DNA of 64,000 nt from Escherichia phage ECO103 4-12-1. The DNA lies in the sequence record OR844650; one strand, given 5' to 3'. This document shows positions 50,718 through 63,732 of this stretch, in pieces. Made by a program: the position numbers and the translations under genes. The notes under the pieces were generated by a model. That model made no database searches, was not told the DNA's origin, and worked only from the letters and a program-made list of their open reading frames with translations. Within the stretch, counting starts at the first letter, position 1; every line of letters begins with the position of its first letter.

Positions 50718-51113
50718 TTAGATAACCTGGCGGCGTTTACTGTATACTGTTACACGATTACCCTTACGGTCGTGTCGGATCTCTTTCTGGTTGCGAACCA
50801 GTTCACTTGGACGCTTAAGGTTTGCCAGGTGATCCGCGTGAGTCCAAGCGGTATGGTTTGTCTGTACTTTGATATCAGAATCAGCGATAAATTCATCTTG
50901 TGCGTTAAGTACTGCCGCCAGTAAATCCGCTCGTTTTAGTTCTGCTGCTGTTAGTACTGGCTCCGGTGAATTCACGATATCAGAGATTTCTTTGAACTGT
51001 ACGGCCCAGCGTTGACCTTTCGGTGCATCTTTGCCCATGTCTTTAAATGCTGCTCCTTCCTCGCGTGCAACAATACGGGCAGCTTCACGGGTAGCGTAGA
51101 ATTTAGTAATCAT
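50718..51113 (-). CDS. hypothetical protein; paralog of 63143..63409
   Basis: Shares FATRE.AR...GA.FKDMG and DRKGNRVTVY with paralog; start at M4 chosen by paralog alignment. Confidence 0.55.
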   Translation of the reverse strand: MITKFYATREAARIVAREEGAAFKDMGKDAPKGQRWAVQFKEISDIVNSPEPVLTAAELKRADLLAAVLNAQDEFIADSDIKVQTNHTAWTHADHLANLKRPSELVRNQKEIRHDRKGNRVTVYSKRRQVI

Positions 51114-51157
51114 GGTATACATCCTATTAGTTGAGTTAGTACTACAAGTTAGAGTCT

Positions 51158-51186
51158 ATTATAAAGTACTATCTGGGCAATGTCAA
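51158..51186 (-). promoter_or_regulatory. sigma70-like promoter
   Basis: TTGACA-N17-TATAAT on minus strand upstream of 50718..51113. Confidence 0.5.
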
Positions 51187-51208
51187 ATAGTACTTTAAAT
51201 GGATTCTA

Positions 51209-51532
51209 TTACATGTCTTTCTTACGTTTTACATCGTAGTAGCGAACTGTTATTTCTTTGTTAATCTCTTTTTCGATGCGGTGAATAACTTTTTCTTTCG
51301 GGTTGAAACCTATAACGGTTTCTTTAATGATCTCCAAGCCCGTGTATTCTCCTTGTGTACCGTAACCGTAAGTAAAGGTTTCATGTCCCAAGTCTTCCCA
51401 GCGGTCGCCAATTAACGCGGACACGTAGCAAGAGTGGTAAGTGTTACCGTTCCGATCAGTCCAGCGATTAACTTTAATGTCAAAGGAGGTTACAATTTTC
51501 AGTTCTACTTTCTGGGTAAGGATCATAGCCAT
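51209..51532 (-). CDS. hypothetical protein; paralog of 57596..57919
   Basis: ORF 107 aa; shares RWTD..GNTYHSC.VS and VKRKKD with paralog. Confidence 0.55.
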   Translation of the reverse strand: MAMILTQKVELKIVTSFDIKVNRWTDRNGNTYHSCYVSALIGDRWEDLGHETFTYGYGTQGEYTGLEIIKETVIGFNPKEKVIHRIEKEINKEITVRYYDVKRKKDM

Positions 51533-51555
51533 TTTTATTTCTCTCTCTTTGTTAG

Positions 51556-51616
51556 GAGGGGAACCATTCCCCTCGCTTGATGTAAACTATTATACAGTAC
51601 TAAGATACTTTGTCAA
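51556..51616 (-). promoter_or_regulatory. PeSL-like cassette
   Basis: TTGACA-N16-TATAAT then GAGGGGAA..TTCCCCTC hairpin. Confidence 0.6.
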
Positions 51617-51619
51617 TAC

Positions 51620-51802
51620 TTATTTTTTGGAAAGTTTACGCATTAATTCTACGCTTTCTTGTGAACGTTTTGCTACCTGGCAAGCTGTATGGGCAGTAAA
51701 CATTTTTGTATAGTCTGACGCTTTGCCACCAAACCGAGCGGCACGTTCACGGGCACTTGGAACTAATACTATTTCTTTCTTGCAGATAGTGCACTTAGCC
51801 AT
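51620..51802 (-). CDS. small Cys/His protein
   Basis: ORF 60 aa; CTIC ... HTAC. Confidence 0.45.
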   Translation of the reverse strand: MAKCTICKKEIVLVPSARERAARFGGKASDYTKMFTAHTACQVAKRSQESVELMRKLSKK

Positions 51803-51824
51803 TTTAATTTCTCTCTTTTAGTTA

Positions 51825-51886
51825 GGAGGGGAACCATTTCCCCGCCTTGATGTAAACTATTATACAGTACTAAGATACTTTGTCAA
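51825..51886 (-). promoter_or_regulatory. PeSL-like cassette
   Basis: Near-identical to 51556 copy. Confidence 0.6.
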
Positions 51887-51889
51887 TAC

Positions 51890-52165
51890 TTAAGTATTGT
51901 AAATGTCGTGAATAGTGATAAAGTTTTTACGCCCGTAAACCTGTAAATCGGTATTAATGTAGTGCTTATCAAGTACATCCTCGACGCTTAACGCGGTGTC
52001 GTGAATATCTTCGTAGAATTGGGGATCTACAATCTTGCTTAAGTCATCCGGCGTTAACTTATCGTTAAGCCATTGAACCGCCTGGATATCTGCATCACGT
52101 TTCCATTGTTCCAGGTTAGTAGTCAGTACTTGCTCGATTTCGTTAGCTGTCAGTAGAATCCGCAT
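51890..52165 (-). CDS. hypothetical protein
   Basis: ORF 91 aa. Confidence 0.55.
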   Translation of the reverse strand: MRILLTANEIEQVLTTNLEQWKRDADIQAVQWLNDKLTPDDLSKIVDPQFYEDIHDTALSVEDVLDKHYINTDLQVYGRKNFITIHDIYNT

Positions 52166-52198
52166 TTTAATGTTTCCTTATCAGTGGTTGATGTAAGT

Positions 52199-52226
52199 AT
52201 TATACTCGTTTACTTTCTATTGTCAA
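52199..52226 (-). promoter_or_regulatory. sigma70-like promoter (proximal of tandem pair)
   Basis: TTGACA-N16-TATAAT on minus strand. Confidence 0.5.
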
Positions 52227-52236
52227 ACTATTTTAT

Positions 52237-52310
52237 CAGGGGAGTTTTTCGTATGTCTTACTCCTGGACTACTTAACGGGGTTACTTGTTTCGTTCCCCG
52301 TCCTGATGTA
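52237..52310 (-). ncRNA. conserved leader / candidate small RNA element (copy 1 of 3)
   Basis: About 70 nt between two promoters; ACGGGG..CCCCGT hairpin and conserved AAGTA, CCAGGAGTAAG, ACGAAAAACT blocks; no ORF. Confidence 0.3.
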
Positions 52311-52314
52311 AAAC

Positions 52315-52342
52315 ATTATACTTGATTCTAAGTACAATGCAA
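52315..52342 (-). promoter_or_regulatory. sigma70-like promoter (distal of tandem pair)
   Basis: TTGCAT-N16-TATAAT on minus strand. Confidence 0.5.
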
Positions 52343-52384
52343 GTACTTTTTAAAAATAGTTTTCAGTACTAGCCACCAGCAAAC

Positions 52385-52468
52385 AATAGATACATTTATG
52401 CACCCTGTGGGCTGATTTGTTTCTATGCGTATATAATAGCAAAGGGACTGACTGGAGTCAATCCCTTT
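52385..52468. repeat. repeat module R2
   Basis: atagatacatttatgcaccctgtgggct ... aaagggactgactggagtcaatcccttttt. Confidence 0.5.
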
Positions 52469-62397: not shown

Positions 62398-62428
62398 TTT
62401 GTAACTCTCATTCAGTAGTTGATGTAAG

Positions 62429-62457
62429 TATTATACGCTTTTAAAAACATTTGTCAA
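62429..62457 (-). promoter_or_regulatory. sigma70-like promoter (proximal of tandem pair)
   Basis: TTGACA-N17-TATAAT; same arrangement as 52199. Confidence 0.5.
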
Positions 62458-62466
62458 ACTATTTTA

Positions 62467-62540
62467 TCAGGGGAGTTTTTCGTGTGCCTTACTCCTGGGC
62501 TACTTAACGGGGAGTTACTTATTTCGTTCCCCGTCCTGAT
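62467..62540 (-). ncRNA. conserved leader / candidate small RNA element (copy 2 of 3)
   Basis: Near-identical to 52237..52310. Confidence 0.3.
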
Positions 62541-62547
62541 GTAAAAC

Positions 62548-62575
62548 ATTATACGCCTTTAAACATAGTTTGCAA
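62548..62575 (-). promoter_or_regulatory. sigma70-like promoter (distal of tandem pair)
   Basis: TTGCAA-N16-TATAAT. Confidence 0.5.
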
Positions 62576-62621
62576 GTACTTTTTAAAAATAGTTTTCAGT
62601 ACTGAATATTAAAAAAAAGTA

Positions 62622-62650
62622 TTGACAGCATTATCAAGTACTGGCATAAT
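62622..62650 (+). promoter_or_regulatory. plus-strand sigma70-like promoter (second copy)
   Basis: TTGACA-N17-CATAAT on plus strand, followed by AACCCACCGGGTGC and partial R2 module. Confidence 0.35.
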
Positions 62651-62714
62651 ATACCCCATGACAACAGCTAACCCACCGGGTGCACAATTGTAACTGTAAT
62701 AAACTACTTTTTCT

Positions 62715-62770
62715 ATAGATACACTCCCGCACCCTATGGGCTACGGCTTATCTGCCAATGAATACATTAT
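62715..62770. repeat. repeat module R2 (partial, lacks hairpin)
   Basis: atagatacactcccgcaccctatgggct conserved, then diverges. Confidence 0.4.
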
Positions 62771-62824
62771 GCCAGTACTGACAAAATAAGTCAATACCGG
62801 CAATTGTAAAGATTTGTAAACTGC

Positions 62825-63055
62825 TTATACTGCAATCGCGTCCAGGCTATAATAATAATAAGTGCCGTATTGGTGTACTTTATTACCTTTTATTTCAGTA
62901 CTGAATGAATCCGAACGGTTTGCATATGATGTTAATTTAAAGTACTTTGATTTGCTGATACGTTGCCATACACCGCAGATCCGCTGTAAGTAAGTAGTTT
63001 TATTCGTGGTAGTATCTTTTACGGTTTTAACTTCAGTCATATACATATTAGTCAT
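62825..63055 (-). CDS. hypothetical protein
   Basis: ORF 76 aa. Confidence 0.5.
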   Translation of the reverse strand: MTNMYMTEVKTVKDTTTNKTTYLQRICGVWQRISKSKYFKLTSYANRSDSFSTEIKGNKVHQYGTYYYYSLDAIAV

Positions 63056-63076
63056 TTTTATTACTCCAGGTTATAG

Positions 63077-63135
63077 GCGGGATGTGTTCCCGCTCTAGAT
63101 GTAAAACATTATACGCCATTAAACATAGTTTGCAA
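63077..63135 (-). promoter_or_regulatory. PeSL-like cassette
   Basis: TTGCAA-N16-TATAAT then GGCGGGA..TCCCGC hairpin. Confidence 0.5.
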
Positions 63136-63142
63136 GTACTTT

Positions 63143-63409
63143 TTATTCAAGTACTGCAATCTTTTTAGTACGGTACACGGTCACGCGGTTGCCCTTTCGG
63201 TCGAGCTTTATTTCTACCACTCGACGCGATACACTATCGGGACTTTTTAAGGCCGCTAACCAGTACTGTAATGATCTGGCTGTACTACGCTTTACAATGG
63301 CCCAACGTTCACCACTTGCCGATCCCGCACCCATATCTTTAAACGTTGCCCCGTCCTGGCGAGCGGCGATCCGAGCTTGTTCACGCGTCGCAAAATACTT
63401 AATATTCAT
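63143..63409 (-). CDS. hypothetical protein; paralog of 50718..51113
   Basis: ORF to 63445; likely start MNIKYFATREQ; shared DRKGNRVTVY. Confidence 0.55.
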   Translation of the reverse strand: MNIKYFATREQARIAARQDGATFKDMGAGSASGERWAIVKRSTARSLQYWLAALKSPDSVSRRVVEIKLDRKGNRVTVYRTKKIAVLE

Positions 63410-63446
63410 GCTGTTGCCCTTATCGTTGGTGTATGAATAAAACACT

Positions 63447-63481
63447 ATTATAAAGTACTATCACCGTGCAATAGTACTTTA
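63447..63481 (-). promoter_or_regulatory. sigma70-like promoter
   Basis: ATTGCA-N17-TATAAT on minus strand. Confidence 0.4.
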
Positions 63482-63492
63482 AATAAATTCTA

Positions 63493-63732
63493 TTACATTC
63501 CAACCATCGCCGCACGGATCGCAGTAGTGCTATATTTGAATCCGTCCGGTGTTTTATCTTGTCCAGTCTGTTCTAAAAATAGCATCATATGACGGGCCGC
63601 ATCATTGCGATTAGTGCTATCGTTAATAAAGTCCTGGGCCAACCGGTACAATGATTCATCGTTATTAATCCAAAGGCTTACATTCCAATGAGTTTTGTTT
63701 TTGTGACCTAAGAACATTTTTGATTTTGCCAT
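63493..63732 (-). CDS. hypothetical protein; paralog of 61454..61693
   Basis: ORF to 63786 runs through cassette; likely start MAKSKMF at 63732. Confidence 0.55.
   Translation of the reverse strand: MAKSKMFLGHKNKTHWNVSLWINNDESLYRLAQDFINDSTNRNDAARHMMLFLEQTGQDKTPDGFKYSTTAIRAAMVGM

Follow-up and report, generated by a model that had tools for sequence, protein, structure and literature searches.

In a stretch of 64,000 nucleotides from Escherichia phage ECO103 4-12-1 (record OR844650; the whole stretch is called the window here, and position 1 is its first letter), we found that three of four proposed pairs of small genes, named A, B and C, are old relatives, none of which is a recent duplicate. 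They lie in a long direct terminal repeat (DTR) whose small genes carry repeated promoter-hairpin cassettes. An original prediction, made from the sequence alone, had proposed four diverged pairs and suggested that modules are duplicated and shuffled by recombination between the cassettes. The best explanation, to which we give a probability of roughly 60%, is that old A, B and C relatives reside in the DTR and that modules have been moved there by recombination at leaders and gene ends.

Similarity of the gene pairs

The eight proposed ranges are all intact minus-strand open reading frames (ORFs) with an ATG start. The pairs were compared by BLASTP, by Smith-Waterman (SW) alignment with 1000 shuffles, by PHROG and Pfam assignment, and by the Nei-Gojobori proportion of synonymous differences (pS).

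Pair A, 50718-51113 and 63143-63409, minus strand: 35.5% identity over 124 columns; E = 1.9e-19; SW z = 29; phrog_8127
Pair B, 51209-51532 and 57596-57919, minus strand: 38.3% identity over 107 residues, gapless; E = 6.7e-28; z = 40; phrog_6246
Pair C, 61454-61693 and 63493-63732, minus strand: 67.1% identity over 79 residues; E = 2.7e-38; z = 51; phrog_871, Pfam DUF7249
Pair D, 49829-50071 and 50129-50347, minus strand: no BLASTP match; z = -0.4; no family

For A, B and C the observed SW score was reached by 0 of 1000 shuffles each, and the predicted similarities proved significant on formal alignment, lack of significance being found for D alone. Chance, or the translation of shared promoter sequence, is an extremely improbable account of A, B and C, which align over their full length at E values from 1e-19 to 1e-38, share one PHROG family per pair and have orthologs in related phages. 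The same account holds for D, whose genes were rejected as paralogs by sequence comparison, with an SW score of 22 against a shuffle mean of 23.7 (654 of 1000 shuffles as good). D1 and D2 have in common a promoter and leader of about 60 nt, about 90% identical and present in only two copies in the window.

49829..50071, minus strand: D1, 80 aa, unrelated to D2 at the protein level
50072..50128, minus strand: D1 leader, one copy of the two-copy promoter and 5' untranslated region (5'UTR) repeat (TTGACAGTACTCAA.TGTTTTAGTA...CACGGG..AAACAAAATG)
50129..50347, minus strand: D2, 72 aa, unrelated to D1 at the protein level
50348..50404, minus strand: D2 leader, second copy of the repeat

Longest-ORF translations through this shared leader give look-alike, leader-derived N-termini (MTVLKCFST... 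and MTVLNCFSI...), which may explain why the two genes were paired. No further pair was found among the 58 minus-strand ORFs of 45-64 kb in an all-against-all comparison, even at E < 0.5. As to protein function, Pfam placed C in DUF7249 alone and had no match for A or B, the PHROG families are without known function, and PDB sequence searches with the pair proteins were empty or insignificant.

Location in the terminal repeat

By megablast (171 phage records matched), the best match for 49000-64000 is Escherichia phage vB_Ec-M-J, with 95.6% identity and 93% coverage. It is followed by fEgEco12, BF17, G17 and 121Q. These belong to Asteriusvirus or are closely related to it, and are jumbo coliphages with genomes of 348-386 kb; the window belongs to an Asteriusvirus, a 121Q/PBECO4-type jumbo coliphage. 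These five phages are the relatives compared throughout. Since they cover anywhere from 31% to 93% of 49000-64000, this region is highly plastic.

In vB_Ec-M-J, DTRs of 21,525 bp are annotated, and the physical genome end and DTR boundary align to window position 44965. PhageTerm detected repeats of 20,993 bp in fEgEco12, and restriction digests verified them (PMC13070987). From this end point and these lengths, most of one DTR of about 21 kb is placed in the window.

44965..64000, minus strand: in-window part of the ~21-kb DTR, containing all 31 cassette matches and all gene pairs

At 44965 the G+C content rises by about 5 points, from ~0.31-0.35 to 0.38-0.40. The DTR part is packed with about 55 small genes on one strand, nearly all of them on the minus strand and most with their own leader. 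Phage T5 carries its pre-early genes in a long direct terminal repeat (~10 kb) of small one-strand genes with strong host-type promoters. The likeness is one of layout: small one-strand genes in a long DTR that is likely the first DNA expressed. The T5 repeat is not known for repeated promoter-hairpin units.

Age of the pairs

Synonymous sites are saturated in B along the entire gene (pS 0.84) and in A over codons 1-38 (pS 0.78). In C the pS is mosaic: 0.50 over codons 9-32, 0.85 over codons 33-59, where amino acid identity is 30%, and 0.36 over codons 60-79. By tblastn, A1, A2, B1, B2 and C2 were present in all five relatives wherever the locus reaches their position; C1 was found in vB_Ec-M-J and BF17 only and is missing from fEgEco12, G17 and 121Q. 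Pairs A, B and C are old relatives, with no recent duplication among them. In themselves, paralog pairs are commonplace in such regions.

Saturation in A and B, and the presence of A1, A2, B1, B2 and C2 in all five relatives, also fit ancient in-genome duplications that were inherited vertically and kept by selection for functions that diverged or stayed redundant, with the cassettes serving as promoters and having no share in the origin or movement of the copies. The differing promoter classes of B1 and B2 point the same way. We regard this reading as unlikely for three reasons: C1 is a variable gene whose slot, bounded by a shared cassette, has four alternative occupants; leaders came along with the A2 and C copies; and the module at 60104..60340 is placed elsewhere in 121Q. 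True in-genome paralogs would each be closest to their partner, orthologs aside, and this is not so for C or A: C2 is 87% identical to the allele of the Vequintavirinae phage W70 vs 67% to C1, and A1 is 41% identical to gp182 of phage RaK2 vs 35% to A2. No family B homologs are known outside the genus.

Pair C and the DUF7249 family

61454..61693, minus strand: C1, 79 aa, DUF7249 gene of centre type I; variable module, in 16 of 47 matching phage records
61705..61785, minus strand: cassette upstream of C1, with an UP-like A tract, AGTACT, TTGCAA-16-TATAAT, hairpin GGCGGGGAG..TTCCCCGC and Shine-Dalgarno (SD) sequence
61396..61453, minus strand: spacer between C1 and the next gene (61114..61395), with a hairpin at 61415-61434 and no promoter; nearly identical in W70
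63493..63732, minus strand: C2, 79 aa, DUF7249 gene of centre type II; in all five relatives
63748..63822, minus strand: cassette upstream of C2, with promoter and SD region GAGGATTAAAAAAAATGGC in common with the C1 cassette

The similarity between C1 and C2 runs from just upstream of the -35 element, via the cassette and the SD region GAGGATTAAAAAAAATGGC, which is specific to both, to just past the stop codon. Because it spans the promoter edge to just after the stop, the shared unit is cassette plus gene. Both proteins match DUF7249 (PF23907) well above the gathering cut-off of 27 (C1 50.7 bits, C2 45.0 bits); neither this Pfam family nor phrog_871 has an assigned function. DUF7249 was found in 326 phage records, including Asteriusvirus, Phapecoctavirus, Vequintavirinae, Ralstonia and Vibrio phages and cyanophages.

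The family is mosaic. Among 70 database alleles, N-terminal tags (MASTKTYN, MAKSKMFL, MKSNKGYN and others) and centre types occur in varied combinations; allele P0003 joins a C2-like tag to a C1-like centre, and P0009 is the reverse. The centre of C2 is 74-89% identical to that of most listed database alleles, including those of Phapecoctavirus- and Vequintavirinae-type phages, and 81% identical to the W70 centre, with 30% to the C1 centre. Nucleotides 28-240 of C1 (213 nt) are 100% identical to the Phapecoctavirus vB_EcoM_10C3_SA_NWU (10C3), whose DUF7249 gene is Phapecoctavirus-like in its first 27 nt and its flanks. As three isolates carry the 10C3-type allele and short metagenomic contigs encode the same recombinant type, this allele is not a single assembly error. 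C1 is thereby a concrete, testable case of very recent exchange between phage families, with 213 identical nucleotides in a small gene. Elsewhere in the DTR, the genes at 54194-54438 and 54520-54734 are about 72% identical at the nucleotide level to genes in the small-gene region of 10C3, where their order differs.

Across 11 distinct, related DUF7249 genes, codons 10-17 and 76-79 plus the stop are nearly invariant even synonymously, and other conserved codons vary; in so small and related a sample, the invariant end codons are a hint only. The AlphaFold model of C1 has four helices (predicted local distance difference test, pLDDT, 84), and the variable centre corresponds to the end of helix 2 and all of helix 3. 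A Foldseek search of this model against PDB gave no match below E = 3.

The block of C-type gene, spacer and 93-aa gene is common to the window and W70 (78% over 580 nt), and the DUF7249 gene, hairpin spacer and 93-aa gene are shared with the Vequintavirinae phages W70, A7_1 and A5-4 at 78-85% nucleotide identity. In 121Q the 93-aa gene (61114-61395) is annotated as a DUF1033 family protein.

Because C2 is closer to W70 (87%) than to C1 (67%), C1 and C2 may be co-resident alleles of a mobile gene and not an in-genome duplicate; to judge from these identities, a mosaic, mobile gene kept as two co-existing alleles describes C better than a local duplicate does. The copies could instead be xenologs, each second copy having been imported independently from another phage that carries the family. 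For C, the higher identity of C2 to W70 in the full gene and in the centre (81% vs 30%), the C1 centre that is identical in three Phapecoctavirus isolates, the spread of DUF7249 over 326 records in many genera and the block of C1 and the 93-aa gene in common with Vequintavirinae all speak for import. For the three pairs together we consider it improbable: family B is confined to Asteriusvirus, an outside donor is unlikely for family A, which is found only in RaK2-like jumbo phages bar two short N-terminal matches, and C1 and C2 both have Asteriusvirus-type cassettes and SD regions, which specifically resemble each other.

Pairs A and B

50718..51113, minus strand: A1, 131 aa, phrog_8127; syntenic with RaK2 gp182
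51114..51208, minus strand: A1 upstream region, with the B1 stop codon (ATGTAATAG), a hairpin-less promoter and the 5'UTR
63143..63409, minus strand: A2, 88 aa, phrog_8127; derived short copy directly after the DUF7249 gene C2
63410..63492, minus strand: A2 upstream region; matches its A1 counterpart at about 88% identity from ATGTAATAGAAT through TATAATAG of the promoter
51209..51532, minus strand: B1, 107 aa, phrog_6246; in all five relatives
51549..51626, minus strand: canonical cassette upstream of B1, 90% identical to the neighbouring cassette 51820-51889 and not to the B2 upstream region
57596..57919, minus strand: B2, 107 aa, phrog_6246; in all five relatives

The upstream regions of A1 and A2 are far more alike than their coding sequences. 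The A1 promoter (TTGACA-17-TATAAT, 51186..51158) has 12 of 12 consensus matches, and the A2 promoter spacer has a 5-nt deletion relative to it. The shared stretch begins with the 12 nt ATGTAATAGAAT, within the last codon and stop of the upstream gene (B1 or C2). Since the shared part consists of an own hairpin-less promoter and ATGTAATAGAAT over the upstream stop codon, the boundary of A is not at a canonical cassette. Since GGAATGTAATA also closes the DUF7249 genes of other phage families, a short-homology junction for A2 is reasonable, although unproven.

Homologs of family A, 32-44% identical, are carried by RaK2-like jumbo phages whose hosts include Klebsiella, Erwinia and Salmonella; the short N-terminal matches are in two smaller phages. 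In RaK2 the single homolog, gp182, stands between homologs of window genes 51890..52165 and 50401..50655; as this is the position of A1, A1 represents the ancestral locus of the family. At the A2 position, the divergent Asteriusvirus EJP2 has a gene of the long A1-like form (62% identity to A1, 47% to A2) with an A1-like 5'UTR. This form fits a promoter, UTR and gene that were copied together, with the gene shrinking later in the lineage of the window, or a later gene conversion.

Family B was found in 35 records, all of them Asteriusvirus-type phages of E. coli or Salmonella. The B2 promoter (TTGACA-17-CATAAT with TG, 57989..57961, hairpin-less) is of a different class from that of B1, and the two upstream regions show generic promoter similarity only. 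Because promoter classes differ and synonymous sites are saturated, no duplication boundary is recoverable. Two candidate homologs were rejected: RaK2 gp183, which lies at the B1 position, has no similarity to B, and the 107-aa gene inserted at window 53185/6 in G17, fEgEco12 and BF17, which might have been a third copy, is unrelated despite its equal length. The flanking DNA shared along with the gene is cassette and SD region for C, and promoter and upstream stop codon for A.

Promoter-hairpin cassettes

A profile hidden Markov model (HMM), built from the 27 matches of a regular expression, was run over the window and gave 31 cassette matches. They span 45812 to 63822, every one of them on the minus strand, and 1-45 kb has none. 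In the 5' to 3' direction of that strand, the cassette consists of an A-rich tract ending in AGTAC, a promoter (TTGCAA or TTGACA, 16 nt, TATAAT, with AAAAAGTAC preceding), an nnTTTACATC-like motif, a G-rich hairpin, the SD sequence and ATG. An independent consensus promoter scan recovered the cassette sites at 10-12 of 12 matches. The cassettes are intergenic and lie directly upstream of the SD sequence and start codon of small function-unassigned genes in the plastic region. Hairpin-less promoter classes are also present, such as TTGACA-17-CATAAT with a preceding TG.

The hairpins examined all fold (25 of 25) at -9.0 to -15.9 kcal/mol, with a mean of -12.9, in single-sequence folds, which were used in place of an RNAalifold consensus that was poor as the stem registers differ. 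Their stems are G-rich, 6-9 bp long and different in sequence between copies, and their position is fixed at 10-12 nt downstream of the -10 element. From this position, the hairpin probably lies inside the transcript. Most hairpins are not followed by a T run, which makes a terminator role doubtful, and a terminator scan leaves most of them unflagged; an mRNA-stabilising 5' hairpin would be at least as likely. No Rfam family matched anywhere in the window. Cassette similarity was rejected as a tracer of gene ancestry, because spacer and hairpin variants are themselves mosaic and dispersed.

The HMM scored 52-54 bits in W70, equal to the window's own scores, and gave five or six matches per 6.2 kb at 13-26 bits in two Phapecoctavirus loci and 12 matches in 5.4 kb of EJP2. 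RaK2 yielded one weak match, yet its A homolog has a leader with promoter and hairpin.

Two other repeated elements were seen among the cassettes. A two-promoter unit of about 190 nt is repeated at 62412-62611 and 52181-52370 with about 86% identity, before unrelated genes. Its first cassette has a longer hairpin (GGACGGGGAACGAAATAAGTAACTCCCCGT), and no ORF stands before its second, hairpin-less promoter; the unit, which Rfam does not match, might give a short non-coding transcript. A third cassette of the long-hairpin type lies at 59320-59397. The other element has four copies (46422-46449, 49174-49201, 52441-52468 and 55915-55942), each with a 12-bp stem (AAAGGGATTGACTCCGGTCAGTCCCTTT), an A run before it and GCTATTATAT after it. 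It is terminator-like on both strands and also holds a promoter-like site, TTGACT-17-TATTAT; 3 of the 4 copies sit just upstream of a cassette.

Module exchange among the relatives

Four alternative occupants were found in the slot downstream of the 203-aa gene (61786..62397), of which the C1 cassette is the upstream edge. C1 occupies it in the window, vB_Ec-M-J and BF17, an unrelated 88-aa gene (G17_00048) in G17, and an unrelated 54-aa gene (g621) in fEgEco12. In 121Q the occupant is 121Q_272, an ortholog (82%) of window gene 60104..60340, which stands three genes further downstream in the window and G17; 121Q_272 is a translocated single-gene module. The upstream cassette is common to the window, G17 and fEgEco12, and homology stops three bases past the hairpin in G17 and at the hairpin in fEgEco12. 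On the downstream side the window has the hairpin only, and G17 and 121Q have a full cassette.

The five relatives show deletion, replacement and translocation of single-gene modules, and homology is lost within cassettes or at their edges, which supports the shuffling part of the original prediction. The window arrangement is kept in 16 of the 47 matching records, and the rest fall into at least 5 other coverage patterns. Next to the slot, the vB_Ec-M-J ortholog of 61786-62397 (its locus 16981-17655) is 21 aa longer, 224 vs 203 aa, and the extra length is a tandem repeat of an N-terminal segment (TT.FVMDFSELN).

Other features of the window

The palindrome AGTACT occurs 245 times in 1-64000 against an expected 16.9 +/- 4, a 14-fold over-representation. 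It is by far the commonest palindromic hexamer (the next, TTTAAA, has 82), turns up in coding DNA in each of the three reading frames, is about twice as dense in intergenic DNA, and is part of most promoters (AAAGTACTTGCAA, CAGTACTGTATAAT). Per kb, Asteriusvirus DTR loci and RaK2 have 6-8 copies and W70 has 2.2; none was found in 12.4 kb of Phapecoctavirus sequence. A full-text literature search found no paper on AGTACT in jumbo phages. The stretches 29400-37600 and 40100-45100 are free of the motif, which is dense on both sides of them, and may differ in origin or constraint.

Just outside the DTR, at 37100-44900, lies a cassette-free tandem array of more than 25 paralogs, each about 65-90 aa long, that follow one another directly and in many cases overlap at their stop and start codons. 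Further tandem paralog families were seen in 18600-29500 and 34400-38900, among them five paralogs of about 150-165 aa at 25546-27870 (E down to 2e-61), paralogs of about 120 aa at 27880-29498 and of 168-188 aa at 34469-36440.

Discussion

The homologies, boundaries, presence and absence patterns and mosaic alleles that we observed are best explained if single-gene modules move by homologous or short-homology recombination at repeated regulatory leaders and conserved gene ends. A2 would then be a derived copy with its own promoter and 5'UTR that landed directly after the DUF7249 gene at the ATGTAATAGAAT junction. C1 and C2 would be two allelic DUF7249 types, whose conserved ends and variable centre reassort among Asteriusvirus, Vequintavirinae and Phapecoctavirus, and module replacement, translocation and deletion would still be under way among present-day relatives. 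As for the predicted duplication by cassette recombination, it is plausible for C, where boundary and cassette coincide, and partly for A; B is untraceable, and D falls away.

Several points weigh against recombination at leaders and gene ends. Of 29 distinct breakpoints in chained BLAST pieces from the five relatives, 16 fall in cassette matches; this raw enrichment (55% in 14% of the sequence) was rejected as evidence, since the fair null is intergenic DNA, of which cassettes make up about 60%. The count shows only that events end between genes, and breakpoints are not enriched in cassettes beyond the intergenic expectation in these relatives, a result that suits vertical duplication as well. 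Some indels have a single end in a cassette; of the two ends of the 349-nt G17_00024 module, one is at a stop codon and the other in a promoter spacer. A cassette may be most similar to a neighbouring or to a distant cassette, but not to that of the paralogous gene. The crossover between C1 and Phapecoctavirus is inside the gene and not in the cassette, and B has kept no duplication boundary. Finally, the recombination mechanism, transcription and its presumed early timing, the role of the hairpin and any protein functions are inferred from sequence.

The cassettes resemble the promoter-early stem-loop (PeSL) cassettes of T4-type phages, between which recombination has been proposed to delete, insert or replace the flanked genes (PMC2839356, PMC4122927). 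Both are 80-100 bp repeats of an AT-rich tract, sigma-70 promoter, G-tract/C-tract stem-loop, SD sequence and start codon, both are concentrated in a hyperplastic region of small function-unassigned genes, and in both cases close relatives differ by single-gene insertion, deletion or replacement. In the present phage such events are bounded by the units in clear cases, the C1 slot and the 121Q translocation, and have one end only in a cassette in others. They differ in that the present phage is a RaK2-like jumbo phage, with records classed as Asteriusvirus, and not one of the Tevenvirinae or KVP40-type, that its units are found only in the DTR, and that they have one fixed hairpin position after the -10 element and mostly no T run; a near-same unit occurs in Vequintavirinae and a weaker form in Phapecoctavirus. 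By portal protein, RaK2-like phages are only distantly related to T4-like phages (PMC5259590). A literature search found no paper on PeSLs in RaK2-like, Asteriusvirus, Vequintavirinae or Phapecoctavirus genomes. The RaK2-like phage vB_PcaM_CBB has a 22-kb terminal repeat, RpoD-like promoters with an UP element and 22 ORFs as paralogs (PMC5259590). It is alike in having sigma-70-type promoters before short hypothetical genes in the presumed early region and repeat; the paper differs from our results in that no hairpin-bearing cassette, shuffling, or A, B or C families are described (PMC5259590).

As a tentative extension, the leaders and invariant gene-end blocks might form a recombination socket common to three unrelated lineages of E. 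coli myoviruses, Asteriusvirus, Vequintavirinae and Phapecoctavirus, at which early host-takeover or anti-defence genes, with their variable segments, are traded today and DUF7249 diversifies by swapping its central helix pair. If true, two co-resident DUF7249 types would widen what the phage can counter. The exchange between families and the AGTACT excess are more interesting leads than the paralog pairs.

Recombination at leaders and gene ends in the DTR would carry PeSL-type modular shuffling beyond T4-type phages, into the terminal repeat of RaK2-like jumbo phages, and marks the repeat of about 21 kb as a plastic and probably first-expressed part of their genomes. Several such isolates are candidates for therapy or biocontrol (PMC13070987, PMC10213699), and differences in DTR gene content may bear on their host range and defence evasion.

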